DNA of 64,000 nucleotides from Escherichia coli. GTDB taxonomy: Bacteria; Pseudomonadota; Gammaproteobacteria; Enterobacterales; Enterobacteriaceae. The stretch is from the NCBI RefSeq assembly GCF_013315695.1, contig NZ_CP054353.1. One strand, written 5' to 3'. This document shows positions 1 through 25,780 of this stretch, piece after piece. The notes below the pieces were generated by a model that was not told the DNA's origin, searched no databases, and saw only the letters and a list, made by a program, of their open reading frames with translations. Both the position numbers and the translations under genes were made by a program. Each line of letters starts with the position of its first letter. Position 1 is the first letter of the stretch.

Positions 1-1404
1 GTGTCACTTTCGCTTTGGCAGCAGTGTCTTGCCCGATTGCAGGATGAGTTACCAGCCACAGAATTCAGTATGTGGATACGCCCATTGCAGGCGGAACTGA
101 GCGATAACACGCTGGCCCTGTACGCGCCAAACCGTTTTGTCCTCGATTGGGTACGGGACAAGTACCTTAATAATATCAATGGACTGCTAACCAGTTTCTG
201 CGGAGCGGATGCCCCACAGCTGCGTTTTGAAGTCGGCACCAAACCGGTGACGCAAACGCCACAAGCGGTAGTGACGAGCAACGTCGCGGCCCCTGCACAG
301 GTGGCGCAAACGCAGCCGCAACGTGCTGCGCCTTCTACGCGCTCAGGTTGGGATAACGTCCCGGCCCCGGCAGAACCGACCTATCGTTCTAACGTAAACG
401 TCAAACACACGTTTGATAACTTCGTTGAAGGTAAATCTAACCAACTGGCGCGCGCGGCGGCTCGCCAGGTGGCAGATAACCCTGGCGGTGCTTATAACCC
501 GTTGTTCCTTTATGGCGGCACGGGTTTGGGTAAAACTCACCTGCTGCATGCGGTGGGTAACGGCATTATGGCGCGCAAGCCGAATGCCAAAGTGGTTTAT
601 ATGCACTCCGAGCGCTTTGTTCAGGACATGGTTAAAGCCCTGCAAAACAACGCGATCGAAGAGTTTAAACGCTACTACCGTTCCGTAGATGCACTGCTGA
701 TCGACGATATTCAGTTTTTTGCTAATAAAGAACGATCTCAGGAAGAGTTTTTCCACACCTTCAACGCCCTGCTGGAAGGTAATCAACAGATCATTCTCAC
801 CTCCGATCGCTATCCGAAAGAGATCAACGGCGTTGAGGATCGTTTGAAATCCCGCTTCGGCTGGGGACTGACTGTGGCGATCGAACCGCCAGAGCTGGAA
901 ACCCGCGTGGCGATCCTGATGAAAAAGGCCGACGAAAACGACATTCGTTTGCCGGGCGAAGTGGCGTTCTTTATCGCCAAGCGTCTACGATCTAACGTAC
1001 GTGAGCTGGAAGGCGCGCTGAACCGCGTTATTGCTAACGCCAACTTTACCGGACGTGCGATCACCATCGACTTCGTGCGTGAGGCGCTGCGCGACTTGCT
1101 GGCATTGCAGGAAAAACTGGTCACCATCGACAATATTCAGAAGACGGTGGCGGAGTACTACAAGATCAAAGTCGCGGATCTCCTTTCCAAGCGTCGATCC
1201 CGCTCGGTGGCGCGTCCGCGCCAGATGGCGATGGCGCTGGCGAAAGAACTGACTAACCACAGTCTGCCGGAGATTGGCGATGCGTTTGGTGGCCGTGACC
1301 ACACGACGGTGCTTCATGCCTGCCGTAAGATCGAGCAGCTGCGTGAAGAGAGCCACGATATCAAAGAAGATTTTTCCAATTTAATCAGAACATTGTCATC
1401 GTAA
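1..1404 (+). CDS. dnaA: Chromosomal replication initiator DnaA, 467 aa, GTG start at window position 1
   Basis: ORF track 1..1404; Walker A motif GGTGLGKTH and C-terminal DNA-binding region recognisable; upstream promoter and DnaA boxes lie outside the window. Confidence 0.97.
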
Positions 1405-1408
1405 ACCT

Positions 1409-2508
1409 ATGAAATTTACCGTAGAACGTGAGCATTTATTAAAACCGCTACAACAGGTGAGCGGGCCGTTAGGTGGTCGTCCTACGCTACCGATTCTCGG
1501 TAATCTGCTGTTACAGGTTGCTGACGGTACGTTGTCGCTGACCGGTACTGATCTCGAGATGGAAATGGTGGCACGCGTTGCGCTGGTTCAGCCACACGAA
1601 CCAGGGGCGACGACCGTTCCAGCGCGCAAATTCTTTGATATCTGCCGTGGTCTGCCTGAAGGCGCGGAAATTGCCGTGCAGCTGGAAGGTGAGCGGATGC
1701 TGGTGCGCTCCGGGCGTAGCCGTTTTTCGCTGTCTACCCTGCCAGCGGCGGATTTCCCGAATCTTGATGACTGGCAGAGCGAAGTCGAATTTACCCTGCC
1801 GCAGGCGACGATGAAGCGTCTGATTGAAGCGACCCAGTTTTCTATGGCGCATCAGGACGTTCGCTATTACTTAAACGGTATGCTGTTCGAAACTGAAGGT
1901 GAAGAACTGCGCACCGTGGCGACCGATGGTCACCGTCTGGCGGTCTGTTCAATGCCAATTGGTCAATCTTTGCCAAGCCATTCGGTGATCGTGCCGCGTA
2001 AAGGCGTGATTGAACTGATGCGTATGCTCGACGGCGGCGACAATCCGCTGCGCGTGCAGATTGGCAGCAACAACATTCGCGCCCACGTTGGCGACTTTAT
2101 CTTCACCTCGAAACTGGTGGATGGTCGCTTCCCGGATTACCGTCGCGTTCTGCCGAAGAACCCGGACAAGCATCTGGAAGCTGGCTGTGATCTGCTCAAG
2201 CAGGCGTTTGCCCGTGCGGCAATTCTCTCTAACGAGAAATTCCGCGGCGTGCGTCTGTATGTCAGCGAAAACCAGCTGAAAATCACCGCCAACAACCCAG
2301 AACAGGAAGAAGCGGAAGAGATCCTCGACGTTACCTATAGCGGTGCGGAGATGGAAATCGGCTTCAACGTCAGCTATGTGCTGGATGTTCTCAACGCGCT
2401 GAAATGCGAAAACGTCCGCATGATGCTGACCGATTCGGTTTCCAGCGTGCAGATTGAAGATGCGGCCAGCCAGAGCGCGGCTTATGTTGTCATGCCAATG
2501 AGACTGTA

Positions 2509-2509
<1 letters not shown>
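1409..2509 (+). CDS. dnaN: DNA polymerase III beta sliding clamp, 366 aa
   Basis: ORF track; N-terminus [23 protein letters not shown]; immediately downstream of dnaA as in the dnaA operon. Confidence 0.97.
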
Positions 2510-6025
<3,516 letters not shown>

Positions 6026-6064
6026 TGGCTTTTTGTTGCTGATAAAATGACTTAGTCGTCAGTC

Positions 6065-6094
6065 CGGGCGGAGATCATCTCCGCCCTTTTTATT
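6065..6094 (+). terminator. Rho-independent terminator downstream of gyrB
   Basis: GC-rich inverted repeat GGGCGGAGATCATCTCCGCCC followed by a T-run. Confidence 0.7.
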
Positions 6095-6168
6095 TCTGCA
6101 ATCCGCAATTATCATCCCGCAGATCTATACTTTTTGGGTCAACACGTAACGCTTTACAGGTGATTATC

Positions 6169-6567
6169 ATGGGGCTTTTTGATGAAGTTGTCGGTGCCTT
6201 TCTGAAAGGCGATGCGGGGAAATATCAGGCGATTTTGAGCTGGGTTGAGGAGCAGGGCGGCATTCAGGTGCTGCTGGAAAAACTGCAAAGTGGCGGTTTA
6301 GGTGCCATTCTCTCAACCTGGCTGAGTAATCAACAGGGCAACCAACCAGTTAGCGGCGAGCAACTGGAATCAGCGCTCGGCACAAATGCGGTGTCCGATC
6401 TCGGGCAAAAACTGGGCGTGGATACCAGTACAGCTTCCAGTTTACTGGCAGAACAATTGCCGAAGATTATTGATGCACTCTCACCGCAAGGTGAAGTGTC
6501 AGCACAAGCCAATAACGATCTGCTTTCCGCAGGCATGGAACTGCTGAAAGGGAAACTCTTCCGCTAA
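6169..6567 (+). CDS. yidB: DUF937 family protein YidB, 132 aa
   Basis: ORF track 6160..6567; start placed at the ATG giving MGLFDEVVGAFLKGD. Confidence 0.85.
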   Translation: MGLFDEVVGAFLKGDAGKYQAILSWVEEQGGIQVLLEKLQSGGLGAILSTWLSNQQGNQPVSGEQLESALGTNAVSDLGQKLGVDTSTASSLLAEQLPKIIDALSPQGEVSAQANNDLLSAGMELLKGKLFR

Positions 6568-6681
6568 GCAAATGGGGAGCATGCAACCCGCATTGCATCC
6601 CCCTTTTCCCTCGGGTGTTGTACTGATTTTTGAGCGGAATCGCGTTAGCATGGGTCAGGAACCAATCTACCTGGGGAACTC

Positions 6682-7494
6682 ATGGCTATCAAACTCATTG
6701 CTATCGATATGGATGGCACCCTTCTGCTGCCCGATCACACCATTTCACCCGCCGTTAAAAATGCGATTGCCGCAGCTCGCGCCCGTGGCGTGAATGTCGT
6801 GCTGACGACGGGTCGCCCTTATGCAGGTGTTCACAATTACCTGAAAGAGCTGCATATGGAACAGCCGGGCGACTACTGCATTACTTATAACGGCGCGCTG
6901 GTACAGAAGGCCGCTGATGGTAGCACCGTGGCGCAAACCGCTCTCAGCTATGACGACTACCGTTTCCTGGAAAAACTCTCTCGCGAAGTCGGTTCTCATT
7001 TCCACGCCCTGGACCGCACCACGCTGTACACCGCCAACCGAGATATCAGCTACTACACGGTGCATGAATCTTTCGTTGCCACCATTCCACTGGTGTTCTG
7101 CGAAGCGGAGAAAATGGACCCCAATACCCAGTTCCTGAAAGTGATGATGATTGATGAACCCGCCATCCTCGACCAGGCCATTGCGCGTATTCCGCAGGAA
7201 GTGAAAGAAAAATACACTGTGCTGAAAAGTGCGCCGTACTTCCTCGAAATCCTCGATAAACGCGTTAACAAAGGTACGGGTGTGAAATCACTGGCCGACG
7301 TGTTAGGCATTAAGCCGGAAGAAGTCATGGCGATTGGCGATCAGGAAAACGACATCGCAATGATTGAATACGCAGGTGTTGGTGTGGCAATGGATAACGC
7401 TATTCCTTCGGTGAAAGAAGTGGCGAACTTTGTCACCAAATCCAACCTGGAAGATGGCGTGGCGTTTGCTATTGAGAAGTATGTGCTGAATTAA
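6682..7494 (+). CDS. yidA: HAD-superfamily sugar phosphatase YidA, 270 aa
   Basis: ORF track; HAD motif I (IAIDMDGTLL) near N-terminus. Confidence 0.93.
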   Translation: MAIKLIAIDMDGTLLLPDHTISPAVKNAIAAARARGVNVVLTTGRPYAGVHNYLKELHMEQPGDYCITYNGALVQKAADGSTVAQTALSYDDYRFLEKLSREVGSHFHALDRTTLYTANRDISYYTVHESFVATIPLVFCEAEKMDPNTQFLKVMMIDEPAILDQAIARIPQEVKEKYTVLKSAPYFLEILDKRVNKGTGVKSLADVLGIKPEEVMAIGDQENDIAMIEYAGVGVAMDNAIPSVKEVANFVTKSNLEDGVAFAIEKYVLN

Positions 7495-7501
7495 TCAGTG
7501 G

Positions 7502-7531
7502 GCGGGCAAACTGCATAAATGCGTTTGCCCG
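7502..7531. terminator. Intergenic hairpin between convergent yidA and yidX, possible bidirectional terminator
   Basis: Inverted repeat GCGGGCAAAC...GTTTGCCCGC; no clear T-run on either side. Confidence 0.4.
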
Positions 7532-7537
7532 CAGCGA

Positions 7538-8194
7538 TTAACAATTTCTGGTCGTGCATAAAATCAGGAACTGGAGTGGTGACGTTACTATATCCAGCGT
7601 AAGAGTGACTGGTAGCAGCGCATTAGCGAGGCCGCGCGGAACGCCATCAGTTGCTTTGTACTTATAAAATCCCACCGTAAAGGGTTGATGGAAAACCATC
7701 ACGTTTGAGTAATCCGCTTTTTTATTTTTCTGGTGGATAGAGCCTTTCAGGCCGTCAAGTGCCCAGGTACAACGCTGGGTATTACAAATAAAACCATATT
7801 GTGTCGCCAGTGCTTTATCTTCCTCATTATCCCAGTCGTAATAGAGCGTTATTGAACCAGAAAAATTAGTATCACTGCTGCTTAAAATAAATTTCGCGTT
7901 ATCAGAAACGGTGATTCTTTCACCATGAATTGCCGGATCGTTTAGCATTTTAACCACCTCACCGCCGCCGGTGGTCAACAGATAGTCCAACGATTCACCA
8001 ACAAAAACATAGCCTTTCGTACCGTTACTATCTTCTGCCAGCGATAAACCCTTAATCGTGTCTGACCGCCATTGCTCGGCATGTGGACGGCTTGCAGTAT
8101 TGGAAACCAATCCCCAGGTGATACATCCGGTCAACGCAAATGCCAAAGAACACAAACCGGCAGCCTTAAAAAATCCCTTAAAATTCAACTTCAT
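7538..8194 (-). CDS. yidX: Predicted lipoprotein YidX, 218 aa
   Basis: ORF track 7538..8299 (253 aa); start trimmed to the internal ATG giving [24 protein letters not shown], a lipoprotein signal with lipobox LTGC. Confidence 0.8.
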
Positions 8195-8330
8195 GATTAA
8201 TCCTTTAAACGAGTAGCTAAGCCGTTGAAAGCATACTCTTCTTTCCCTCCTGTTTAGCGCCTGTTCTCCCTTTTCAGATTTCTGCCCGACGCATGTCATT
8301 TTTTATGCATTGTTCTTTTTGTGATCTAAA

Positions 8331-8364
8331 TTGTAGTACAACAGTATAATTTTGTACTACATTA
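8331..8364 (+). promoter_or_regulatory. dgo promoter/operator region with DgoR-type inverted repeats and a TATAAT -10 hexamer (8345..8350)
   Basis: TTGTAGTACAA and TTGTACTACA half-sites flank a perfect TATAAT about 110 bp upstream of dgoR; assignment to DgoR by position and established operon knowledge. Confidence 0.55.
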
Positions 8365-8470
8365 CGCACACGGCAAACGCGAACGTCATCACGCTGGTAC
8401 TACAAAGTTGCCGCGTTATGCATCGATCGGGGTAAAGTAGAGAAGAACATACAGAGCACAAGGACTCTCC

Positions 8471-9160
8471 ATGACTCTCAATAAAACCGATCGCATCGTT
8501 ATTACGCTGGGTAAACAGATCGTTCACGGCAAATACGTACCAGGCTCTCCACTTCCGGCTGAGGCGGAGCTCTGTGAAGAGTTTGCAACCTCGCGCAACA
8601 TCATCCGTGAGGTGTTCCGTTCGCTGATGGCGAAGCGGCTGATTGAAATGAAACGTTATCGCGGGGCGTTTGTGGCTCCGCGTAACCAGTGGAATTACCT
8701 CGACACTGACGTACTGCAATGGGTGCTGGAAAACGACTACGACCCACGGCTTATCAGTGCCATGAGCGAAGTGCGAAATCTGGTGGAACCGGCGATTGCC
8801 CGTTGGGCGGCAGAACGCGCGACTTCCAGCGATCTGGCGCAGATTGAATCGGCGCTGAACGAGATGATTGCCAACAATCAGGACCGCGAAGCGTTTAACG
8901 AAGCGGATATTCGCTACCACGAGGCGGTGCTGCAGTCGGTGCATAACCCGGTGTTACAGCAACTTAGCATTGCGATCAGTTCGCTGCAGCGGGCGGTTTT
9001 TGAACGAACCTGGATGGGCGATGAGGCCAACATGCCGCAAACGCTCCAGGAACATAAGGCGCTGTTCGATGCGATACGGCATCAGGACGGCGATGCGGCA
9101 GAGCAGGCGGCGCTTACCATGATAGCCAGCTCGACACGAAGGTTAAAGGAAATCACATGA
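8471..9160 (+). CDS. dgoR: GntR/FadR-family repressor of D-galactonate catabolism DgoR, 229 aa
   Basis: ORF track; N-terminal winged-helix region, first gene of the dgo operon. Confidence 0.93.
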   Translation: MTLNKTDRIVITLGKQIVHGKYVPGSPLPAEAELCEEFATSRNIIREVFRSLMAKRLIEMKRYRGAFVAPRNQWNYLDTDVLQWVLENDYDPRLISAMSEVRNLVEPAIARWAAERATSSDLAQIESALNEMIANNQDREAFNEADIRYHEAVLQSVHNPVLQQLSIAISSLQRAVFERTWMGDEANMPQTLQEHKALFDAIRHQDGDAAEQAALTMIASSTRRLKEIT

Positions 9161-10035
9161 CAGCTCGCTACATCGCAATTGACTGGGGATCGACCAATCT
9201 GCGCGCCTGGCTTTATCAGGGCGACCACTGCCTGGACAGCAGGCAATCAGAAGCAGGCGTCACGCGCCTGAACGGAAAATCTCCGGCTGCGGTGTTAGCA
9301 GAAGTGACGACCGACTGGCGTGAAGAGAATACGCCAGTGGTGATGGCAGGAATGGTCGGCAGCAATGTCGGCTGGAAAGTTGCGCCGTATTTATCTGTTC
9401 CTGCCCGTTTTTCATCTATTGGCGAACAATTAACGTCTGTTGGCGACAATATCTGGATTATTCCCGGATTATGCATCTCTCATGACGATAACCACAATGT
9501 GATGCGCGGCGAAGAAACACAATTGATCGGCGCGCGCACTTTGGCTCCTTCCTCTCTTTATGTTATGCCCGGAACCCATTGCAAATGGGTGCAGGCCGAT
9601 AGCCAGCAAATCAACGATTTTCGCACCGTAATGACCGGTGAATTACATCATTTACTGTTAAATCACTCATTGATTGGCGCAGGTTTGCCGCCGCAGGAAA
9701 ACTCTGCCGATGCCTTCGCGGCTGGCCTTGAGCGTGGCCTTAATGCGCCCGCCATATTGCCGCAGCTTTTTGAAGTTCGCGCCTCGCATGTGCTGGGAAC
9801 ACTTCTCCGCGAACAGGTCAGTGAATTTCTCTCTGGTTTGTTGATTGGCGCAGAGGTTGCCAGTATGCGCGACTATGTAACCCATCAACACGCCATCACC
9901 CTTGTCGCCGGAACATCGCTGACCGCGCGCTACCAGCAAGCCTTTCAGGCGATGGGGTGCGACGTGACGGCGGTGGCGGGCGACACGGCATTTCAGGCTG
10001 GTATAAGGAGCATCGCTCATGCAGTGGCAAACTAA
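9157..10035 (+). CDS. dgoK: 2-dehydro-3-deoxygalactonokinase DgoK, 292 aa
   Basis: ORF track; start overlaps dgoR stop (ATGA). Confidence 0.93.
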   Translation: MTARYIAIDWGSTNLRAWLYQGDHCLDSRQSEAGVTRLNGKSPAAVLAEVTTDWREENTPVVMAGMVGSNVGWKVAPYLSVPARFSSIGEQLTSVGDNIWIIPGLCISHDDNHNVMRGEETQLIGARTLAPSSLYVMPGTHCKWVQADSQQINDFRTVMTGELHHLLLNHSLIGAGLPPQENSADAFAAGLERGLNAPAILPQLFEVRASHVLGTLLREQVSEFLSGLLIGAEVASMRDYVTHQHAITLVAGTSLTARYQQAFQAMGCDVTAVAGDTAFQAGIRSIAHAVAN

Positions 10036-10636
10036 ACTCCCGCTGATCGCCATTTTGCGCGGCATTACGCCCGACGAGGCGCTGGCGCATGTTGGCGCGG
10101 TGATTGACGCTGGGTTCGACGCGGTAGAAATCCCGCTGAACTCTCCACTATGGGAACAAAGCATTCCCGCCATCGTTGATGCGCATGGCGACAAGGCGTT
10201 GATTGGCGCAGGTACGGTACTGAAACCTGAACAGGTCGATGCACTCGCCAGGATGGGCTGCCAGCTCATCGTTACGCCCAATATCCATAGTGAAGTGATC
10301 CGCCGTGCGGTGGGCTACGGCATGACCGTTTGCCCCGGCTGCGCGACGGCGACCGAAGCCTTTACCGCGCTCGACGCGGGCGCGCAGGCGCTGAAAATAT
10401 TTCCGTCATCGGCTTTTGGTCCGCAATACATCAAAGCGTTAAAAGCGGTATTACCACCGGACATCGCGGTCTTTGCCGTTGGCGGCGTGACGCCAGAAAA
10501 CCTGGCGCAGTGGATAGACGCAGGTTGTGCAGGGGCGGGCTTAGGCAGCGATCTCTATCGCGCCGGGCAATCCGTAGAACGCACCGCGCAGCAGGCAGCA
10601 GCATTTGTTAAGGCGTATCGAGAGGCAGTGCAATGA
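10019..10636 (+). CDS. dgoA: 2-dehydro-3-deoxy-6-phosphogalactonate aldolase DgoA, 205 aa
   Basis: ORF track; overlaps dgoK 3' end by 17 nt. Confidence 0.93.
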
Positions 10637-11589
10637 AAATCACCAAAATTACCACGTATCGTTTACCTCCCCGCTGGATGTTCCTGAAAATTGAAACCGA
10701 TGAAGGCGTGGTCGGCTGGGGCGAGCCCGTGATTGAAGGCCGCGCTCGCACTGTGGAAGCGGCAGTCCACGAGCTGAGTGACTATTTGATTGGTCAGGAC
10801 CCGTCACGCATCAACGACTTATGGCAAGTGATGTATCGCGCCGGATTTTATCGTGGCGGTCCGATTCTGATGAGTGCCATCGCCGGTATCGACCAGGCGT
10901 TATGGGATATCAAAGGCAAAGTGCTGAATGCGCCGGTGTGGCAACTGATGGGCGGCCTGGTTCGCGACAAAATTAAAGCCTACAGTTGGGTCGGCGGCGA
11001 TCGTCCGGCGGATGTTATCGACGGCATTAAAACCCTGCGCGAAATCGGCTTCGATACCTTCAAACTGAACGGTTGTGAAGAACTGGGGCTAATTGATAAC
11101 TCCCGCGCGGTAGATGCGGCAGTCAACACCGTGGCACAAATTCGTGAAGCCTTTGGCAATCAGATTGAGTTTGGTCTTGATTTCCACGGTCGCGTCAGCG
11201 CGCCGATGGCGAAAGTGCTGATTAAAGAACTGGAGCCGTATCGCCCGCTGTTTATTGAAGAGCCGGTGCTGGCGGAACAGGCCGAATACTACCCGAAACT
11301 GGCGGCACAAACACATATTCCTCTGGCGGCGGGTGAACGCATGTTCTCACGCTTCGATTTTAAACGCGTGCTGGAGGCGGGCGGTATTTCGATTCTGCAA
11401 CCAGATCTCTCTCATGCAGGCGGTATTACCGAATGCTACAAAATTGCCGGAATGGCAGAAGCCTATGACGTGACCCTTGCGCCGCACTGTCCGCTCGGAC
11501 CGATTGCACTGGCGGCTTGTCTGCATATCGACTTTGTTTCCTATAACGCCGTACTTCAGGAACAAAGTATGGGAATTCATTACAACAAA

Positions 11590-11598
11590 GGCGCGGAG
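11590..11598. repeat. IS1 target-site duplication, left copy (GGCGCGGAG)
   Basis: Identical 9-mer directly abuts both IS1 ends. Confidence 0.95.
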
Positions 11599-11653
11599 GG
11601 TGATGCTGCCAACTTACTGATTTAGTGTATGATGGTGTTTTTGAGGTGCTCCA

Positions 11654-11929
11654 GTGGCTTCTGTTTCTATCAGCTGTCCCTCCTGTTCAGCTACTGACGG
11701 GGTGGTGCGTAACGGCAAAAGCACCGCCGGACATCAGCGCTATCTCTGCTCTCACTGCCGTAAAACATGGCAACTGCAGTTCACTTACACCGCTTCTCAA
11801 CCCGGTACGCACCAGAAAATCATTGATATGGCCATGAATGGCGTTGGATGCCGGGCAACAGCCCGCATTATGGGCGTTGGCCTCAACACGATTTTACGTC
11901 ACTTAAAAAACTCAGGCCGCAGTCGGTAA
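11654..11929 (+). CDS. insA: IS1 InsA, 91 aa
   Basis: ORF track protein [39 protein letters not shown]..., recognised as IS1 InsA. Confidence 0.95.
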
Positions 11930-12351
11930 CCTCGCGCATACAGCCGGGCAGTGACGTCATCGTCTGCGCGGAAATGGACGAACAGTGGGGCTATGTCGGG
12001 GCTAAATCGCGCCAGCGCTGGCTGTTTTACGCGTATGACAGGCTCCGGAAGACGGTTGTTGCGCACGTATTCGGTGAACGCACTATGGCGACGCTGGGGC
12101 GTCTTATGAGCCTGCTGTCACCCTTTGACGTGGTGATATGGATGACGGATGGCTGGCCGCTGTATGAATCCCGCCTGAAGGGAAAGCTGCACGTAATCAG
12201 CAAGCGATATACGCAGCGAATTGAGCGGCATAACCTGAATCTGAGGCAGCACCTGGCACGGCTGGGACGGAAGTCGCTGTCGTTCTCAAAATCGGTGGAG
12301 CTGCATGACAAAGTCATCGGGCATTATCTGAACATAAAACACTATCAATAA
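11848..12351 (+). CDS. insB: IS1 InsB reading frame, 167 aa; expressed as the InsAB' transposase by -1 frameshift from insA
   Basis: ORF track 11848..12351 overlapping the insA 3' end in the -1 frame. Confidence 0.9.
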
Positions 12352-12366
12352 GTTGGAGTCATTACC

Positions 12367-12375
12367 GGCGCGGAG
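12367..12375. repeat. IS1 target-site duplication, right copy (GGCGCGGAG)
   Basis: Identical to 11590..11598. Confidence 0.95.
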
Positions 12376-12677
12376 TTACTCGACTTTGTGAAAAACAAAG
12401 AAGACTTCAGCATGGTTGGCGGCTTCTTTAAACCGCTAACGAAACCGGGCTTAGGCGTAGAAATCGACGAAGCTAAAGTTATTGAGTTCAGTAAAAATGC
12501 CCCGGACTGGCGTAATCCGCTCTGGCGTCATGAAGATAACAGCGTAGCAGAGTGGTAATTCCTGCCACGTAAGCCCCTCATCGGGCACTAAAACAGCAAT
12601 ACAAAAATATAACCCTCTGTAAATTACAGGGCATGGTGAGCGGCTTCGCTATGCCCAAAATCTGGAGAAAGCTCGCT

Positions 12678-13970
12678 ATGGATATTCCCGTTAATGCAGC
12701 AAAGCCGGGGCGTCGGCGTTATCTGACGCTGGTGATGATCTTTATTACGGTGGTCATTTGTTATGTTGACCGCGCTAACCTGGCCGTGGCTTCCGCCCAT
12801 ATTCAGGAAGAGTTCGGTATTACCAAAGCGGAAATGGGCTATGTATTTTCGGCCTTCGCCTGGCTTTATACGCTATGTCAGATCCCCGGTGGTTGGTTTT
12901 TAGATCGCGTAGGTTCACGCGTGACTTATTTTATTGCGATATTTGGCTGGTCAGTGGCGACGTTATTCCAGGGCTTTGCCACGGGATTAATGTCATTAAT
13001 TGGTCTGCGCGCGATAACCGGTATTTTCGAAGCGCCCGCTTTCCCGACCAATAACCGGATGGTGACCAGTTGGTTCCCGGAACATGAACGTGCTTCTGCC
13101 GTTGGTTTTTATACGTCTGGTCAGTTTGTCGGTCTGGCGTTTCTGACTCCGCTGCTGATCTGGATTCAGGAGATGTTGAGCTGGCACTGGGTGTTCATCG
13201 TCACCGGTGGTATCGGCATTATCTGGTCGCTGATTTGGTTTAAGGTTTATCAGCCGCCGCGCCTGACTAAAGGCATCAGCAAAGCTGAACTGGATTACAT
13301 TCGTGATGGCGGCGGTCTGGTGGATGGCGATGCGCCGGTGAAAAAAGAGGCGCGTCAGCCGTTAACAGCCAAAGACTGGAAACTGGTGTTCCATCGTAAA
13401 CTGATCGGTGTCTATCTTGGGCAATTTGCGGTGGCTTCTACACTGTGGTTTTTCTTAACCTGGTTCCCGAACTATTTAACCCAGGAAAAAGGAATCACGG
13501 CGCTGAAAGCAGGCTTTATGACCACGGTGCCGTTCCTCGCGGCGTTTATTGGCGTCCTGCTCTCTGGCTGGGTCGCGGATCTGCTGGTACGTAAGGGCTT
13601 TTCACTGGGCTTTGCGCGTAAAACGCCGATTATCTGCGGCTTGCTGATCTCCACCTGCATTATGGGCGCTAACTACACTAACGATCCGATGATGATTATG
13701 TGCCTGATGGCGCTGGCATTCTTCGGCAACGGTTTTGCTTCGATTACCTGGTCGCTGGTTTCTTCTCTGGCACCGATGCGCCTGATTGGTTTAACCGGCG
13801 GCGTGTTTAACTTTGCCGGTGGTCTGGGCGGCATCACTGTTCCGCTGGTGGTGGGGTACCTGGCGCAGGGTTACGGTTTCGCACCTGCACTGGTTTATAT
13901 CTCCGCCGTTGCGTTGATTGGCGCGCTCTCTTACATCCTGCTGGTGGGCGATGTGAAGCGCGTTGGCTAA
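12678..13970 (+). CDS. dgoT: D-galactonate:H+ symporter DgoT (MFS), 430 aa
   Basis: ORF track 12633..13970; start placed at the ATG giving [22 protein letters not shown]. Confidence 0.9.
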
Positions 13971-15031
13971 TCTTTCAACTGTGGAATATGCGCCACACCA
14001 CTGCGCATAATCCACTTTCTTAAAGCTGGTGCGGTCAGGCATCGGCTTTTTACTATTTTGCCGAAGAGTTTTAAACGCAGTTTGCGGGTGGCGCGCCAGT
14101 AGGCGGCGTTGCTCTTCTCCGGCTGCTTCAGTAACACCGAACGCAGAATCTCTGCGCTATCCAGCGCATAGCTAATCCCCTCCAGCGAACTGGCGCTGAT
14201 AAATCCCGCCGCTTCACCAATCAGAAAGGCGTTGTCCTTACCGCAGACAAAATCCTGCCAGCGTGAGGGAAACAGCACGGTACATTTCTCGCTTTTCACC
14301 GCTTTACCAAACTGGAACTGAAAGGCGTTCATTTTCTCTTTCAGCGTCGTGAAACGCGTCTGACCGTCTTTCATGGGATAGGCACCGCCAAAGATAAAAT
14401 AACCGTCTTTGCTGATACTCCATGAGTAACAGTCAGTTATCGCATTATCAAAGATGCAGGAGTAGAACGGCACCGGATGTTTCTCTGCGAACCACTGCTG
14501 GATAGCGACATATTTACGAATTTGATGATCCGGGTAGAGATGTCGCCGCACCATCGAGTTTGCGCCATCGGCACCGACCAGATAGCGGGCAGTAATATGC
14601 TGCTCCCAACCGTCTGCACGAAAAATGACATGCCATTTATCATCCTCACGCCAGATTTTTCGGCACAGGCTGTCGTGGTAAACCTCAACGCTGGCGGGGA
14701 TCAGCGATTTCATCCACAAGTCGAAAGCATGGCGATTAATATTGATATAGCTTCGCTGGTAGTTACGCGTGAGCGATGCGGCGACGTCGACAGTTTTGAC
14801 GCTGAAAATCTGTGGATTGGCGATCACATCGACAGGAAGCGTCAGTCCATCGCGAATAAAAGATCGCTGCGCGTCCGGTGCCAGCAGACCGCCGCAGGGT
14901 TTGCTGAAACCTTCAGTACCACACTGGTGCTTTTTATCCAGCGCGATCACCTGCATTTTGCTGGCTAACGTTCGTGCCAACACCGACCCTGCCGGGCCGA
15001 GGCCAATAATCGCCACGTCGAAATGTTCCAT
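13967..15031 (-). CDS. cbrA: FAD-dependent oxidoreductase CbrA (colicin E2 tolerance), 354 aa
   Basis: ORF track 13967..15052; start at the ATG giving [16 protein letters not shown] (FAD-binding GxGxxG). Confidence 0.88.
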
Positions 15032-15095
15032 CTTTTCACTCACATTCATCACGATGGCGAAAGACTATTGTCTGAAAGTGAAGTCCTTGTGAAGT

Positions 15096-16346
15096 ATGAT
15101 GGCGGGACCCGTTTTGTATCAGGACCGCGCCATGAAACAGATAACCTTTGCTCCCCGTAATCACCTGCTCACCAATACCAATACCTGGACGCCCGACAGC
15201 CAGTGGCTGGTATTTGACGTGCGTCCTTCTGGCGCGTCGTTTACCGGCGAGACCATTGAGCGTGTGAATATCCATACCGGCGAGGTCGAGGTTATCTATC
15301 GCGCGTCACAGGGCGCGTACGTTGGCGTGGTGACCGTTCATCCGAAGTCAGAGAAATATGTTTTCATCCACGGCCCGGAAAATCCTGATGAAACATGGTA
15401 TTACGACTTTCATCATCGGCGTGGAGTGATTGTTGAAGGCGGCAAGGTGAGCAATCTCGATGCAATGGATATTACCGCGCCGTACACCCCAGGAGCACTG
15501 CGCGGCGGCAGCCATGTGCATGTCTTTAGCCCGAACGGTGAAAGGGTGAGCTTTACCTATAACGACCATGTAATGCATCAACTCGATTCGGCGCTGGATT
15601 TGCGAAACGTCGGCGTGGCTGCACCGTTTGGCCCGGTCAACGTACAAAAGCAGCATCCGCGTGAATACAGCGGTAGCCACTGGTGCGTGCTGGTGAGTAA
15701 AACCACGCCCACGCCGCAGCCTGGCAGCGATGAAATCAATCGTGCTTATGAAGAAGGATGGGTAGGAAATCACGCGCTGGCGTTTATTGGCGACACACTT
15801 TCGCCAAAGGGCGAGAAAGTGCCGGAGCTATTTATCGTTGAGTTACCGCAAGATGAAGCTGGCTGGAAAGCGGCAGGTGATGCGCCGTTAAGTGGAACGG
15901 AAACAACCCTGCCCGCGCCACCGCGCGGCGTCGTGCAGCGACGTTTAACCTTTACCCACCATCGGGCTTATCCGGGGTTAGTCAACGTCCCGCGCCACTG
16001 GGTGCGCTGTAATCCGCAGGGTACGCAAATCGCGTTTTTAATGCGTGATGATAACGGCATTGTGCAACTGTGGCTTATCTCGCCACAGGGCGGCGAGCCG
16101 CGCCAGTTAACCCATAACAAAACGGATATTCAGTCTGCATTTAACTGGCATCCGTCAGGAGAATGGTTGGGCTTTGTGCTGGATAATCGAATTGCTTGCG
16201 CCCATGCGCAAAGCGGCGAGGTTGAGTATTTAACCGAAAACCACGCCAATCCACCTTCTGCGGACGCCGTGGTCTTCTCGCCGGATGGTCAATGGCTGGC
16301 GTGGATGGAAGGCGGCCAGCTGTGGATCACCGAAACTGATCGCTAA
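15096..16346 (+). CDS. yidR: Conserved beta-propeller-like protein YidR, about 415 aa
   Basis: ORF track; two adjacent ATG codons at 15096 and 15099, exact start uncertain. Confidence 0.85.
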   Translation: MMAGPVLYQDRAMKQITFAPRNHLLTNTNTWTPDSQWLVFDVRPSGASFTGETIERVNIHTGEVEVIYRASQGAYVGVVTVHPKSEKYVFIHGPENPDETWYYDFHHRRGVIVEGGKVSNLDAMDITAPYTPGALRGGSHVHVFSPNGERVSFTYNDHVMHQLDSALDLRNVGVAAPFGPVNVQKQHPREYSGSHWCVLVSKTTPTPQPGSDEINRAYEEGWVGNHALAFIGDTLSPKGEKVPELFIVELPQDEAGWKAAGDAPLSGTETTLPAPPRGVVQRRLTFTHHRAYPGLVNVPRHWVRCNPQGTQIAFLMRDDNGIVQLWLISPQGGEPRQLTHNKTDIQSAFNWHPSGEWLGFVLDNRIACAHAQSGEVEYLTENHANPPSADAVVFSPDGQWLAWMEGGQLWITETDR

Positions 16347-16347
16347 A

Positions 16348-16680
16348 TCAGTTATCAGGCATTCTGGCCGGTGGAATAACCGCATTGGTGGCTTGTGCGT
16401 TGGCTTCGCTTTTTTCAACGCGCGAGCGCACTGAGCTATCTTTGCGGAACACATCCCACGGTAGCAATATTGTGTCCAGTACTGCGGTAAATGGCATGTC
16501 GAGTATCGCCAGCGATTTTGTGCCCCAGTTGGTTTCATCGTCGCCAATCATAGTTGCGCTGGCGCGGGTGCCAGGATACGTTCCTTCTTTCCCCCCGGTA
16601 TGGGACATCACGCTGGAGCATCCTCCGAGTAATGTCATTCCGCTGCATATCATGAACGCTAACAACACATTTCTTATCAT
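16348..16680 (-). CDS. yidQ: Predicted outer-membrane lipoprotein YidQ, 110 aa
   Basis: ORF track 16348..16755; start trimmed to the ATG giving MIRNVLLAFMICSGMTLLGGCSS (lipobox). Confidence 0.82.
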   Translation of the reverse strand: MIRNVLLAFMICSGMTLLGGCSSVMSHTGGKEGTYPGTRASATMIGDDETNWGTKSLAILDMPFTAVLDTILLPWDVFRKDSSVRSRVEKSEANAQATNAVIPPARMPDN

Positions 16681-16854
16681 AATAAATTCATCTGTTGATC
16701 GTGGGTGTTGGCCTGATGAGTTATAGCGATCCCTTGCTGAAAATAACATCATCATTACGTCGCACTGTGGCGGCTATCGCACTTTAACGTTTCGTGCTGC
16801 CCCCTCAGTCTATGCAATAGACCATAAACTGCAAAAAAAAGTCCGCTGATAAGG

Positions 16855-16883
16855 CTTGAAAAGTTCATTTCCAGACCCATTTT
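16855..16883 (+). promoter_or_regulatory. Sigma-32 heat-shock promoter of ibpAB
   Basis: CTTGAAA (-35) and CCCATTT (-10) with 13-bp spacing, about 100 bp upstream of ibpA. Confidence 0.75.
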
Positions 16884-16889
16884 TACATC

Positions 16890-16985
16890 GTAGCCGATGA
16901 GGACGCGCCTGATGGGTGTTCTGGCTACCTGACCTGTCCATTGTGGAAGGTCTTAGATTCTCGCTGATTTCAGGAGCTATTGATT
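16890..16985 (+). promoter_or_regulatory. ibpA 5' UTR, expected ROSE-type RNA thermometer
   Basis: Position between the sigma-32 promoter and the ibpA start; structure not folded here, assignment from established knowledge. Confidence 0.5.
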
Positions 16986-17399
16986 ATGCGTAACTTTGAT
17001 TTATCCCCGCTTTACCGTTCTGCTATTGGATTTGACCGTTTGTTTAACCACTTAGAAAACAACCAGAGCCAGAGTAATGGCGGCTACCCTCCGTATAACG
17101 TTGAACTGGTAGACGAAAACCATTACCGCATTGCTATCGCTGTGGCTGGTTTTGCTGAGAGCGAACTGGAAATTACCGCCCAGGATAATCTGCTGGTGGT
17201 GAAAGGTGCTCACGCCGACGAACAAAAAGAGCGCACCTATCTGTACCAGGGCATCGCTGAACGCAACTTTGAACGCAAATTCCAGTTAGCTGAGAACATT
17301 CATGTTCGTGGTGCTAACTTGGTGAATGGTCTGCTGTATATCGATCTCGAACGCGTGATTCCGGAAGCGAAAAAACCGCGCCGTATCGAAATCAACTAA
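16986..17399 (+). CDS. ibpA: Small heat-shock protein IbpA, 137 aa
   Basis: ORF track 16980..17399; N-terminus [20 protein letters not shown]. Confidence 0.96.
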
Positions 17400-17510
17400 T
17401 TCCCTAAGGCCGCCTGGCGCGGCCTGACATTTCCATGCTCGCCGTCAGGGAGCATATGCGAATCTTCGGATTTGCAGGTACTTACTCGCTTCTTAGAAGG
17501 AGAAATGACT

Positions 17511-17939
17511 ATGCGTAACTTCGATTTATCCCCACTGATGCGTCAATGGATCGGTTTTGACAAACTGGCCAACGCACTGCAAAACGCCGGTGAAAGCCAG
17601 AGCTTCCCGCCGTACAACATTGAAAAAAGCGACGATAACCACTACCGCATTACCCTTGCGCTGGCAGGTTTTCGTCAGGAAGATTTAGAGATTCAACTGG
17701 AAGGTACGCGCCTGAGCGTAAAAGGCACGCCGGAGCAGCCAAAAGAAGAGAAAAAATGGCTGCATCAAGGGCTTATGAATCAGCCATTTAGCCTGAGCTT
17801 TACGCTGGCTGAAAATATGGAAGTCTCTGGTGCAACCTTCGTAAACGGTTTACTGCATATTGATTTAATTCGTAATGAGCCTGAACCCATCGCAGCGCAG
17901 CGTATCGCTATCAGCGAACGTCCCGCGTTAAATAGCTAA
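17511..17939 (+). CDS. ibpB: Small heat-shock protein IbpB, 142 aa
   Basis: ORF track 17472..17939; start at the ATG giving [20 protein letters not shown]. Confidence 0.96.
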
Positions 17940-17954
17940 CTAGCTATTCTCTTT

Positions 17955-17983
17955 GCCCCGCCATTCTGGTGGGGCTTTTTTTG
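17955..17983 (+). terminator. Rho-independent terminator of ibpAB
   Basis: GCCCCGCC...GGTGGGGC stem followed by an 8-T run. Confidence 0.8.
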
Positions 17984-18134
17984 TCTTTCTTCTTCAACAA
18001 TGCGTTAAATTTCGCCTGTTTAAGATATTTCGGCACGTTCTTTCCCGTGATAATGTGCGCTATAAGGCAAATCTGCTTCACCGATTCAGCCATAATCCGT
18101 AGCAATTAAAATGTTATCTCAAGAGAAATGGACG

Positions 18135-19796
18135 ATGAGTGATATAGCATTAACGGTCAGTATTCTGGCTTTGGTGGCAGTCGTCGGTTTGTTTATCGGC
18201 AACGTCAAATTTCGCGGCATAGGATTAGGTATTGGCGGCGTGCTGTTTGGTGGGATCATCGTCGGCCATTTTGTTTCTCAGGCGGGGATGACATTAAGTA
18301 GCGATATGCTGCATGTTATTCAGGAATTTGGCCTGATCCTGTTCGTTTATACCATCGGGATTCAGGTAGGGCCGGGCTTCTTTGCCTCATTGCGCGTCTC
18401 CGGATTACGCCTCAACCTGTTTGCTGTTCTGATCGTCATCATCGGGGGTCTGGTTACCGCCATCCTGCATAAACTGTTTGATATTCCACTGCCGGTAGTG
18501 CTGGGGATTTTCTCCGGTGCGGTAACCAATACGCCAGCGCTGGGGGCAGGGCAGCAGATCTTGCGCGACCTGGGTACACCAATGGAAATGGTCGATCAGA
18601 TGGGGATGAGTTACGCGATGGCGTATCCATTCGGTATTTGCGGGATTTTGTTCACCATGTGGATGTTGCGGGTTATGTTCCGCGTCAATGTCGAGACAGA
18701 AGCCCAGCAGCACGAGTCTTCTCGCACCAATGGCGGCGCGCTGATCAGGACTATCAATATTCGCGTTGAGAACCCTAACCTGCATGATTTAGCCATTAAA
18801 GATGTACCGATTCTCAACGGCGACAAAATTATCTGCTCGCGTCTGAAACGCGAAGAAACCCTAAAAGTACCTTCGCCAGATACCATTATCCAACTGGGCG
18901 ATTTGCTGCATCTGGTGGGGCAGCCAGCGGATTTACATAATGCGCAACTGGTGATTGGTCAGGAGGTCGATACCTCGCTGTCCACGAAAGGCACTGATTT
19001 ACGCGTCGAGCGTGTGGTGGTCACCAATGAAAACGTGCTTGGTAAGCGTATTCGCGACCTGCACTTTAAAGAACGCTATGACGTTGTTATCTCGCGCCTG
19101 AACCGTGCCGGGGTCGAACTGGTCGCCAGTGGCGATATCAGCCTGCAGTTCGGCGATATCCTCAACCTGGTGGGGCGTCCGTCCGCAATTGATGCCGTTG
19201 CCAATGTGCTGGGGAATGCGCAGCAAAAACTGCAACAGGTTCAGATGTTGCCGGTGTTTATTGGTATCGGGCTTGGCGTATTGTTAGGTTCTATTCCCGT
19301 CTTTGTGCCGGGATTCCCGGCCGCGTTGAAACTGGGGCTGGCGGGCGGTCCGCTGATTATGGCGTTGATCCTCGGGCGTATCGGCAGTATCGGCAAGCTG
19401 TACTGGTTTATGCCGCCAAGTGCCAACCTCGCGCTGCGGGAGCTGGGGATCGTACTGTTCCTCTCGGTAGTGGGGCTGAAATCTGGTGGGGATTTTGTAA
19501 ATACCCTGGTCAATGGCGAAGGGCTAAGCTGGATTGGTTATGGTGCGCTGATCACCGCCGTTCCGCTGATTACTGTTGGCATTCTGGCGCGGATGTTAGC
19601 CAAAATGAATTACCTGACCATGTGCGGGATGCTGGCTGGCTCCATGACCGATCCACCGGCGCTGGCGTTTGCTAATAATCTTCATCCAACCAGCGGTGCG
19701 GCGGCGCTTTCTTACGCCACTGTCTATCCGTTGGTGATGTTCCTGCGCATTATCACCCCCCAATTACTGGCGGTGCTCTTCTGGAGTATCGGTTAA
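18135..19796 (+). CDS. yidE: Putative AAE-family transporter YidE with two TrkA-C domains, 553 aa
   Basis: ORF track 18111..19796; start at the ATG giving [20 protein letters not shown]. Confidence 0.9.
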
Positions 19797-20237
19797 CTCT
19801 TTTCCGGGTGGAGTCGCCGTAAATGGTACTCCACCTGGTATTCGCTGGCATTTCTGAACATTACTGAATAATTCAAAAACTCCCCGCTCTCGCTATATGA
19901 CAACGAGGTGATCCGCAGCAGTGGCGTGTGTTCCGCTACCTTCATTTGCCGCGCCAGCAGTCTATCGGCGAGCACCAGCGTCAGGCTTTCATAATTACCG
20001 CCAATCAGAATCCCGCACTCTTGTTCAATATATTCAAACTTCGACCCTTCCAGATGTTGCAGCGAAAGGTTACGGAACAGTTTTACCGGCATATAGCTGT
20101 CTTCCAGCATCAGCGGTTTCCCTTCCACAAAACGAACGCGACGGGAGAAGTAGATCTGCTCGTTGATTTGAATCCGTAACTGGCTGGCAATGGCCGGAGG
20201 CGCAGGCATGATTTCAAAAATCAGCACCTGGCTGGTG
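19793..20237 (-). pseudogene. yidP: 5'-truncated yidP (GntR-family regulator): only the C-terminal ~148 codons (effector/UTRA-type domain) remain
   Basis: Reading frame is open from the IS4 boundary at 20237 to the stop at 19793 with no ATG at its 5' end; the N-terminal HTH-encoding part is absent from the window. Confidence 0.8.
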
Positions 20238-20255
20238 TAATGCCGATCAGTTAAG
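20238..20255. repeat. IS4 left terminal inverted repeat
   Basis: TAATGCCGATCAGTTAAG matches the reverse complement of the right end in 16 of 18 positions. Confidence 0.85.
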
Positions 20256-20321
20256 GATCAGTTGACCGATCCAGTGGCTGTGTAAGAATCCGGAAACGCT
20301 CACTTGTTTCCGGATTTTTTT

Positions 20322-21650
20322 ATGCACATTGGACAGGCTCTTGATCTGGTATCCCGTTACGATTCTCTGCGTAACCCACTGACTTCTCTGGGGGATTACC
20401 TCGACCCCGAACTCATCTCTCGTTGCCTTGCCGAATCAGGTACTGTAACGCTACGCAAGCGCCGTCTTCCCCTCGAAATGATGGTCTGGTGTATTGTTGG
20501 CATGGCGCTTGAGCGTAAAGAACCTCTTCACCAGATTGTGAATCGCCTGGACATCATGCTGCCGGGCAATCGCCCCTTCGTTGCCCCCAGTGCCGTTATT
20601 CAGGCCCGCCAGCGCCTGGGAAGTGAGGCTGTCCGCCGCGTGTTCACGAAAACAGCGCAGCTCTGGCATAACGCCACGCCGCATCCGCACTGGTGCGGCC
20701 TGACCCTGCTGGCCATCGATGGTGTGTTCTGGCGCACACCGGATACACCAGAGAACGATGCAGCCTTCCCCCGCCAGACACATGCCGGGAACCCGGCGCT
20801 CTACCCGCAGGTCAAAATGGTCTGCCAGATGGAACTGACCAGCCATCTGCTGACGGCTGCAGCCTTCGGCACGATGAAGAACAGCGAAAATGAGCTTGCT
20901 GAGCAACTTATAGAACAAACCGGCGATAACACTCTGACGTTAATGGATAAAGGTTATTACTCACTGGGACTGTTAAATGCCTGGAGCCTGGCGGGAGAAC
21001 ACCGCCACTGGATGATACCTCTCAGAAAGGGAGCGCAATATGAAGAGATCAGAAAACTGGGTAAAGGCGATCATCTGGTGAAGCTGAAAACCAGCCCGCA
21101 GGCACGAAAAAAGTGGCCGGGACTGGGAAATGAAGTGACAGCCCGCCTGCTGACCGTGACGCGCAAAGGAAAAGTCTGCCATCTGCTGACGTCGATGACG
21201 GACGCCATGCGCTTCCCCGGAGGAGAAATGGCGGATCTGTACAGTCATCGCTGGGAAATCGAACTGGGATACAGGGAGATAAAACAGACGATGCAACTGA
21301 GCAGGCTGACGCTGAGAAGTAAAAAACCGGAGCTTGTGGAGCAAGAGCTGTGGGGTGTCTTACTGGCTTATAATCTGGTGAGATATCAGATGATTAAAAT
21401 GGCGGAACATCTGAAAGGTTACTGGCCGAATCAACTGAGTTTCTCAGAATCATGCGGAATGGTGATGAGAATGCTGATGACATTGCAGGGCGCTTCACCG
21501 GGACGTATACCGGAGCTGATGCGCGATCTTGCAAGTATGGGACAACTTGTGAAATTACCGACAAGAAGGGAAAGGGCCTTCCCGAGAGTGGTAAAGGAGA
21601 GGCCCTGGAAATACCCCACAGCCCCGAAAAAGAGCCAGTCAGTTGCTTAA
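20322..21650 (+). CDS. insG: IS4 transposase, 442 aa
   Basis: ORF track 20304..21650; start at the ATG giving [24 protein letters not shown], recognised as the IS4 transposase. Confidence 0.92.
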
Positions 21651-21663
21651 CTGACTGGCATTA
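21646..21663. repeat. IS4 right terminal inverted repeat
   Basis: Reverse complement TAATGCCAGTCAGTTAAG. Confidence 0.85.
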
Positions 21664-23832: not shown

Positions 23833-23843
23833 TGGAGAAAAAA

Positions 23844-24263: not shown

Positions 24264-24270
24264 GGCCGTC

Positions 24271-25776: not shown

Positions 25777-25780
25777 AAAA

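Follow-up and report, generated by a model that had tools for sequence, protein, structure and literature searches.

In this Escherichia coli, the D-galactonate dehydratase gene dgoD is cut by a complete IS1 with a perfect 9-bp target duplication, a reading of the original prediction that both inspection of the sequence and computation confirm. An IS1 copy very probably transposed into dgoD in an ancestor of the clone, with loss of the pathway and neutral clonal inheritance since. The feature itself is known, as the RefSeq annotation already has two dgoD pseudogene pieces flanking an IS1 transposase. Positions refer to the window, the whole 64-kb stretch of DNA that was analysed (Table 1).

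Structure of the interrupted gene

IS1 lies between two copies of GGCGCGGAG, which are the only forward copies in the window. Two 9-mers at fixed positions would match by chance with a probability of 3.8e-6. As predicted, the duplicated sequence encodes Gly-Ala-Glu of DgoD (Gly320-Ala321-Glu322), and deletion of 11599..12375 (777 nt), expected to restore an ORF of ~382 aa, gives one of 1149 nt and 382 aa. The 5' ORF enters IS1 through eight codons (GGT GAT GCT GCC AAC TTA CTG ATT) and stops at TAG (11623..11625), not 15 codons into IS1 as first described. Its product, ending in GDAANLLI, nevertheless has the predicted 330 aa (322 plus 8 IS1-derived residues). Counted from the right duplication, the 3' piece (12367..12558) has 63 codons and a stop, an acceptable match to the 64 codons predicted, and the truncated product lacks its last 60 residues, in agreement with the expected ~60. 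The clean target duplication, collinear flanks and intact element bear out a simple insertion.

Table 1 Features of the dgo operon and of the IS1 insertion in the window
Feature	Position	Strand	Remarks
DgoR operator IR1, CTAAATTGTAGTACAACAGTAT	8326..8347	+	Overlaps the dgo promoter; 1 nt different from the published K-12 IR1 oligo (PMC12288454)
dgoR	8471..9160	+	Repressor gene, first in operon; intact; 229 aa, identical to K-12 DgoR
dgoK	9157..10035	+	2-dehydro-3-deoxygalactonokinase; ORF intact; 292 aa
dgoA	10019..10636	+	KDPGal aldolase; ORF intact; Tyr56His (T→C at 10184)
dgoD 5' fragment	10633..11598	+	Codons 1-322; PGAP: pseudogene missing C-terminus
Left target-site duplication, GGCGCGGAG	11590..11598	+	9 bp
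Complete IS1	11599..12366	+	768 bp, same orientation as dgoD
IS1 IRL	11599..11621		
insA	11654..11929		
Frameshift motif A6C	11905..11911		AAAAAAC
IS1 IRR	12344..12366		
insB frame end	12351		
Right target-site duplication, GGCGCGGAG	12367..12375	+	9 bp
dgoD 3' fragment	12376..12558	+	Codons 323-382 and stop; undecayed in window; PGAP: pseudogene missing N-terminus
dgoT	12678..13970	+	D-galactonate:H+ symporter; intact, downstream of IS1; 430 aa from the K-12 start, one difference from K-12

Identity of the IS1 element

The inserted element has the attributes of the IS1 family, namely ~768 bp near-identical to the reference, imperfect inverted repeats of ~23 bp, an InsAB' made through A6C and a 9-bp duplication. 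It differs from IS1A of K-12 MG1655 by 1 nt (767/768 identical), and its terminal inverted repeats, GGTGATGCTGCCAACTTACTGAT and GGTAATGACTCCAACTTATTGAT, agree at 18 of 23 positions. The fused InsAB' protein, produced by a -1 frameshift at A6C, has 232 aa, of which one differs from K-12, and scores 245 bits on the NCBIfam IS1 transposase model NF033558 (cut-off 100). Pfam Zn_ribbon_InsA, HTH_Tnp_IS1 and DDE_Tnp_IS1 match the same transposase product in L014. A simple promoter scan places a promoter-like site at 11606..11633, inside IRL. The sequence of the copy is intact, and the expansion of IS1 in the lineage suggests that it may be capable of transposition.

Consequences for DgoD

The rejoined DgoD is identical to K-12 DgoD at 381 of 382 residues. 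On the NCBIfam equivalog NF010624 it scores 696 bits (cut-off 311) over positions 1-382/382. It contains the N-terminal capping domain (PF02746, MR_MLE, residues 15-107) and the barrel domain (PF13378, MR_MLE_C, residues 134-355), and the break at residue 322 cuts the latter before its end. The solved homologue from Ralstonia (PDB 3RR1) aligns end to end (E = 2e-225), and the missing C-terminal tail is identical to it at 42 of 61 positions. Enzymes of the enolase superfamily fold with the C-terminal segment packed against the N-terminal capping domain. On this structural argument, the truncated DgoD is most likely misfolded and inactive, and the expected phenotype would be an inability to grow on D-galactonate.

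The pathway could still work if the 330-aa DgoD were active enough or if another enolase-superfamily dehydratase substituted for it. The residues that we take, from the K-12 enzyme literature, to be catalytic or metal-binding (D183, H185, E209, E235, H285, and E310) are all of the expected type and all upstream of residue 322, and the encoded 5' fragment scores 600 bits on the DgoD model (profile positions 1-322/382). Both observations are consistent with residual function, but the loss of 60 conserved residues and the truncation of the barrel-domain model at 322 of 355 argue against it. In addition, no second dgoD is found at the DNA level. An intact copy elsewhere was named at the outset as the observation that would overturn the prediction, and a megablast and blastn search of the closest complete genome, MSB1_4I, from which the window genome differs by an inversion, gives one chromosomal place only. 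Few dgoD-bearing plasmids are known, all in other strains, and direct reading of plasmid 2 (108 kb) over its first 50 kb shows no dgoD. Moreover, dgoT sits behind a probably polar element, and a nonsense mutation in dgoT of one clade member suggests relaxed constraint. A working pathway is thus very unlikely, and loss of D-galactonate use remains the favoured reading.

The rest of the dgo operon

The operon has the same order as in K-12 (dgoR-dgoK-dgoA-dgoD-dgoT). The ORFs of dgoR, dgoK, and dgoA are all full length, as the prediction of three intact genes had it, with a clade-specific Tyr56His in DgoA. The dgoK allele of the window also occurs in the empty-site relatives AF14 and AF10. Tyr56His is derived, as polarized against K-12, 2016C-3878, MS 21-1, AF14, and AF10, and the two complete genomes that bear the IS1 are the only ones with a dgoA allele 100% identical to that of the window. 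We also considered Tyr56His as a hit on a conserved residue. The structure PDB 2V81 has Tyr at residue 56, which falls on a variable position in an alignment with the Thermotoga KDPG aldolase, so damage to the enzyme is unsupported.

The structure of the dgo operon is taken from PMC12288454, PMC3573128 and general knowledge, and IS1 insertions are classically strongly polar. The gene behind IS1 is dgoT, and the simple promoter scan detects no promoter-like site on the + strand between the right end of IS1 and dgoT. DgoR acts at a single promoter, according to PMC12288454 and to dgoT fusions in Salmonella (PMC3573128). Because its transcript must cross the polar IS1, dgoT is probably under-expressed, as judged from classical IS1 genetics and the scan. 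A polar effect on dgoT is absent from the original prediction.

Distribution of the insertion

The rejoined dgoD has 100% DNA identity to the uninterrupted dgoD of MS 21-1, AF14, and AF10. All three genomes carry the empty site, with flanks collinear with the window, indicating that the insertion post-dates the split from these relatives. Identical junctions are present in at least six independent assemblies (MSB1_4I, AF3, CP164702.1, UGAA01000001.1, KE136770.1, and KE137132.1), and one short-read contig ends at the dgoD/IS1 junction. Misjoins often arise at IS copies, and in the window an IS4 just 8 kb away (20238..21663) has discordant flanks, associated with a 74.5-kb inversion that may be real or a misjoin, so we considered whether the dgoD insertion is an artefact of assembly or the scar of an IS1-mediated rearrangement. 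Such an origin has a negligible probability given the perfect 9-bp duplication, flanks that are both collinear with the uninterrupted locus of three relatives, and the recurrence of the junctions in assemblies from different projects and technologies.

The linked dgoA Tyr56His allele occurs in 1,320 index blocks of public assemblies. The insertion is present in all 24 contigs with this allele that were read, and rare members with intact or reverted dgoD are possible outside those 24. The insertion is not private to one strain and is inherited by a whole, widely sampled clone. The IS1-bearing clone has internal diversity. The insertion had been called recent, and this holds in a relative sense only: the event is later than the split from AF14, AF10, and MS 21-1, but it is fixed in a disseminated, internally diverse clone. 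As a hint at the relationships of the clone, an IS4-kup junction is shared with IAI39 and CE10.

Some members of the clone carry further changes in the operon. A dgoT Gln284stop is present in the clade member KE137132.1, and position 8338 of IR1, the ancestral A in the window, is G in a sub-clade of the IS1-bearing clone. These changes suggest that the rest of the operon may be drifting in some members. An apparent IS1 deletion in KE137132.1, considered as decay, was rejected, as it corresponds to a 10-N scaffold gap.

IS1 load and the question of selection

IS1 copy number is expanded in the lineage, and the dgoD event is one of many. The number of IS1 left ends is 2-4 in 99.9% relatives, 18 in MS 21-1, and at least 39 in AF14, AF10, AF3, and MSB1_4I. 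Other E. coli genomes, most of them rich in IS1, have at least four independent IS1 insertions in dgoT (AP027822.1, LR881940.1/CM142770.1, CP144928.1, and CP069707.1), at sites equivalent to 12839, 12909, 12919, and 12958 of the window. Two of these cases have clean 9-bp duplications, two have an adjacent deletion or rearrangement, and two IS1 variants are involved. If a 5.2-Mb genome has ~40 copies of IS1, chance alone should place one in the 5.5-kb operon in ~4% of such genomes, which is sufficient to account for the handful of dgo events among 388 IS1-rich records.

Alternatively, loss of the pathway was selected. If Tyr56His had weakened the aldolase DgoA, dgoD::IS1 could be a suppressor that prevents formation of toxic 2-dehydro-3-deoxy-D-galactonate 6-phosphate; or the clone could have adapted to an extraintestinal niche in which galactonate catabolism is costly. 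In accordance, the derived Tyr56His is found only together with IS1, the insertion has reached fixation in a human-associated clone that is successful and has been sampled widely, and the dgo locus has been struck repeatedly by IS1 in other lineages. In addition, D-galactonate prevents growth of a dgoA deletion strain through the toxic intermediate, and growth is restored when induction is blocked (PMC12288454). However, residue 56 aligns to a variable position in the related solved aldolase, nothing indicates that His56 is harmful, and Tyr56His may have arisen before or after the insertion. The random expectation already covers the events in the IS1-rich records, and the other genomes with dgo hits are IS1-rich as well. 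Furthermore, in gut-evolution studies selection raises dgo expression and does not lower it (PMC12288454). We therefore regard selected loss as unlikely. If it were true, IR1 A→G and the dgoT nonsense mutation would represent continuing remodelling, and dgoD::IS1 would be a counter-example from nature to the raised dgo expression seen in gut adaptation.

Proposed course of events

IS1 transposes by staggered cuts of InsAB' 9 bp apart, and repair duplicates the 9 bp on both sides. In the neutral account, an IS1 copy in the clone ancestor would have entered dgoD at GGCGCGGAG, codons 320-322, with the cut and repair leaving the footprint seen here. The gene now encodes DgoD 1-322 followed by the IS1-derived residues, with the last 60 codons stranded behind IS1 without a start signal. 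The truncated DgoD would be misfolded and inactive, and transcription from the sole DgoR-controlled promoter, upstream of dgoR, would have to cross IS1. The predicted outcome is no growth on D-galactonate. The insertion would then have been inherited clonally in an IS1-expanded lineage, for which neutral loss or hitch-hiking suffices.

Comparison with known systems

Classical IS1 mutations in the E. coli gal and lac operons have a 9-bp target duplication and show strong Rho-dependent polarity. The dgoD insertion resembles them in the element and the duplication. Here too a structural gene is hit, in a polycistronic sugar-acid operon, and distal polarity would be expected. Unlike those laboratory mutants, dgoD::IS1 arose naturally and has become fixed in a clone of clinical or commensal origin. 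The dgoT::IS1 genomes share with it a same-orientation IS1 in the same operon and an IS1-rich host, but there IS1 strikes the transporter gene at other sites in unrelated lineages, as independent events.

Shigella is a case of IS-driven metabolic gene loss in an IS-expanded lineage. Such loss is also reported for sub-lineages of Klebsiella pneumoniae (PMC12828178). Rising IS copy number together with pseudogenization of a carbon-source pathway is common to these systems and the present clone, whereas the expansion here is modest (at least 39 IS1) and one pathway was examined.

In the mouse gut, adapting E. coli are selected for dgoR mutations, among them IS insertions, indels, and nonsense changes (summarized in PMC12288454; also PMC9509342). 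In both situations a mobile element strikes the dgo locus and D-galactonate metabolism is altered. In the dgoR mutants the repressor is lost and expression goes up, whereas dgoD::IS1 would remove the first enzyme and abolish the pathway, a change in the opposite direction.

Significance

dgoD::IS1 is a textbook gene knockout, ordinary in kind and of known mechanism, and has little importance beyond the description of the strain. We found no description of it in the literature on dgoD and IS1, on dgoD pseudogenes, or on galactonate, IS1, and ExPEC. The dgoD::IS1 junction and dgoA Tyr56His together provide a simple, PCR-sized marker of the clone. The clone is predicted to be unable to use the sugar acid D-galactonate, which other studies tie to gut colonization, and would offer a small, clean case of a pathway lost while IS1 was expanding.

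Structure of the IS1 insertion in dgoD

The D-galactonate dehydratase gene dgoD is interrupted by a complete IS1 element that lies between two perfect 9-bp copies of its target sequence, as originally predicted and as borne out by direct reading of, and computation on, positions 10400..12800. The two copies are the only forward occurrences of the 9-mer in the 64-kb window, and the computed chance probability of a match at two fixed positions is 3.8e-6. The 23-bp ends of the element agree at 18 of 23 positions after reverse-complementing one end. The element differs from IS1A of K-12 MG1655 by a single base, at position 444. InsA shows no difference from its K-12 counterpart; the 232-residue InsAB' obtained by −1 fusion carries one substitution relative to K-12 and reaches 245 bits with the NCBIfam equivalog for IS1 transposase (cut-off, 100). 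The Pfam domains Zn_ribbon_InsA, HTH_Tnp_IS1, and DDE_Tnp_IS1 are present on the identical element of a clone-mate. The element thus shows all the hallmarks of IS1 that are open to in silico testing.

Coordinates of the IS1 insertion and other features (window positions unless stated)
Feature	Position	Strand	Details
IS1 in dgoD	11599..12366		768 bp; first bases GGTGATGCTGCC, last bases GGAGTCATTACC
Target duplication	11590..11598 and 12367..12375		GGCGCGGAG; abuts IS1 on both sides
A6C slippery site	11905..11911		In IS1 of dgoD
MR_MLE_N	Residues 15-107		Rejoined DgoD
MR_MLE_C	Residues 134-355		Rejoined DgoD
IS1 in dgoT	After window-equivalent 12839		Target duplication GAAATGGGC
IS1 in dgoT	After window-equivalent 12909		Target duplication TAGATCGCG; different IS1 variant
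IS1 in dgoT	After window-equivalent 12919		Right flank unrelated
IS1 in dgoT	After window-equivalent 12958		Deletion reaching 13594
IS4	20238..21663		Splits GntR-family regulator at yidP position, within 19793..21808
PemK/MazF-family toxin gene	50364..50813	−	149 aa; between rep and ppiC

The truncated product

The gene order around the split gene is that of K-12, dgoR-dgoK-dgoA-dgoD-dgoT. Removal of 11599..12375 restores a 1149-nt ORF encoding 382 residues, 381 of which are identical to K-12 DgoD. Once rejoined, the protein covers the whole of NF010624, the equivalog model for galactonate dehydratase (696 bits; cut-off, 311), and aligns over its full length with the solved Ralstonia enzyme 3RR1. 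The original prediction placed the end of the 5' ORF 15 codons into IS1, which is incorrect: only eight IS1 codons (GDAANLLI) are read before the TAG at 11623..11625, giving a product of 330 residues (322 + 8).

The break removes residues 323-382, including the last part of the barrel domain as modelled by Pfam, and 42 of 61 residues of the lost tail are identical between E. coli and Ralstonia. The residue types that we take to serve catalysis or metal binding in the K-12 enzyme (D183, H185, E209, E235, H285, and E310) all lie upstream of the break and are retained. Therefore, loss of function would hinge on what the C-terminal segment contributes to the structure; in enolase-superfamily enzymes this segment returns to the capping domain. 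We infer that the truncation most likely inactivates DgoD.

The original prediction named an intact second dgoD copy as evidence that would speak against this loss, and our search found none. Megablast and blastn each place dgoD at a single position on the chromosome of MSB1_4I, a complete genome with the same insertion, and the first 50 kb of its plasmid 2 contain no dgoD. Within the E. coli collection, dgoD occurs at five plasmid positions, which belong to four unrelated plasmids. Separately, a megablast-level match to dgoD or dgoA is missing from 406 of the 5,426 complete genomes of E. coli (about 7.5%); strains without the pathway are therefore not rare in this species.

Operon control and dgoT

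IS1 is classically polar, and dgoT downstream of it is therefore probably under-expressed as well, an effect that the original prediction did not mention. In a consensus scan, the + strand from the right end of IS1 to dgoT contains nothing resembling a promoter. The operon has a single promoter, upstream of dgoR, and DgoR represses it through two inverted repeats overlapping that promoter (PMC12288454); fusions to dgoT in Salmonella are responsive to DgoR (PMC3573128).

In a sub-clade of the IS1-bearing clone, position 8338, inside the DgoR operator IR1 (8326..8347), changes from A to G (TTGTAGTACAA to TTGTAGTGCAA). The window and MSB1_4I retain the ancestral A; AF3, the other complete genome with the insertion, and four other loci carry G. 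With G at this site, repression could be weaker, although the operon it controls is already broken. One clade member, KE137132.1, carries a stop codon at dgoT Gln284 (C to T, window-equivalent 13482), a further decay of the operon downstream of IS1. One clade member has an additional T in its 3' dgoD fragment, which may be a sequencing error.

Empty site and spread of the insertion

The rejoined dgoD is identical at the DNA level (100%) to the uninterrupted dgoD of MS 21-1 (USA, colon), AF14, and AF10 (both UK, blood), and the flanks in these relatives are collinear with the window. They therefore represent the empty site, which supports a simple IS1 insertion and rules out a rearrangement scar. 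MS 21-1 has private nonsynonymous changes in DgoR (Thr222Ile), DgoK (Ala130Thr), and DgoT (Ala156Val, 445-aa ORF numbering), at window-equivalent 9135, 9544, and 13099; across about 13 kb of aligned sequence, its neighbouring housekeeping genes contain no private SNPs, and one indel lies at the end of ibpB.

The left dgoD/IS1 junction occurs in two of 5,426 complete RefSeq genomes, MSB1_4I (rectal swab, Australia) and AF3 (UK, blood). The IS1-bearing genomes share a derived T to C change at 10184 (DgoA Tyr56His), and among complete genomes only MSB1_4I and AF3 carry this dgoA allele at 100% identity. An index of public assemblies lists the exact DgoA-His56 protein in 1,320 blocks. We read the 24 longest contigs encoding it, and all 24 have the 330-residue DgoD with IS1 or end at the junction. 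Identical junctions are present in CP164702.1, UGAA01000001.1, KE136770.1, and KE137132.1, and one 18-kb short-read contig stops at the junction. The commonest size class of contigs with DgoA-His56 is 10-20 kb (703 blocks), which fits short-read assemblies breaking at this IS1. The insertion is thus not a one-strain event. The prediction that it is recent holds relative to the nearest relatives and in that neither dgoD fragment has decayed within the window, but the insertion is already fixed in a clone with internal diversity. It is old enough to be fixed in a clone that occurs in Australia and the UK and among assemblies from several separate sequencing projects.

Every genome in which DgoA Tyr56His was found also has dgoD::IS1. 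The insertion might suppress toxicity arising from a weakened DgoA-His56, and this is mechanistically possible since deletion of dgoA renders galactonate toxic (PMC12288454). However, the position that corresponds to residue 56 in a related aldolase of solved structure is variable, and either change may have come first; we consider such suppression improbable.

An IS4-bounded arrangement in the window

Positions 1..21664 match the start of the MSB1_4I chromosome (NZ_LR898874.1) except at 6823 (yidA codon 48), which is G (Ala) in the window and all relatives and A (Thr) in RefSeq MSB1_4I. The window departs from that record exactly at the right end of IS4. The left flank, CACCTGGCTGGTG, is the 13-bp duplication of the yidP-position insertion in RefSeq MSB1_4I; the right flank, CTCAAAGGGGGGG, does not match it and is the duplication of a second, inverted IS4 upstream of kup. 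Positions 20237..64000 are the reverse complement of MSB1_4I 5,226,758..5,182,996 (99.98% identity; seven mismatches, three gaps). Taken with the base at 6823, these differences show that the window and the MSB1_4I record are not one and the same assembly. The IS4-flanked arrangement is the signature that recombination between the two IS4 copies would leave, with inversion of about 74.5 kb relative to RefSeq MSB1_4I, AF3, and K-12. Judging by K-12 gene order, the segment holds dnaA, oriC, and the dgo locus. None of the complete RefSeq genomes has the same IS4 arrangement, which could reflect either a genuine inversion in a clone-mate or an assembly misjoin. As for the toxin gene between rep and ppiC, we know of no gene at this position in K-12.

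IS1 load and recurrent insertions in the dgo operon

We compared IS1 load among NZ_LR898874.1, NZ_OZ547117.1, NZ_OZ546925.1, NZ_OZ546911.1, and NZ_CP146670.1. The number of IS1 left ends is 2-4 in relatives at 99.9% in dgoD, 18 in MS 21-1, and at least 39 in each of the four closest genomes, AF14, AF10, AF3, and MSB1_4I; the median E. coli genome has 10 IS1 places. IS1 copy number has expanded along the lineage. Elsewhere in E. coli, in unrelated and mostly IS1-rich genomes, the initial 335 nt of dgoT have received at least four independent IS1 insertions, of two IS1 variants. A clean 9-bp duplication flanks two of them, and a deletion or rearrangement adjoins the other two. If a 5.2-Mb genome has about 40 IS1 copies, the calculated expectation is that chance alone places one in the 5.5-kb operon in roughly 4% of such genomes. 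Therefore, a handful of hits among the 388 records with at least 39 copies requires no selection.

RefSeq PGAP annotates dgoD of MSB1_4I as two pseudogene pieces around an 'IS1-like element IS1A family transposase', so the feature is already known in the public record; a literature search found no paper discussing it. With the qualifications described, the interpretation as an IS1 knockout of dgoD is supported: it is a textbook insertional knockout, already annotated. Its interest is modest and lies in two points: the insertion is fixed in a clone that is well sampled and whose IS1 population is expanding, and IS1 has disrupted the dgo operon repeatedly.
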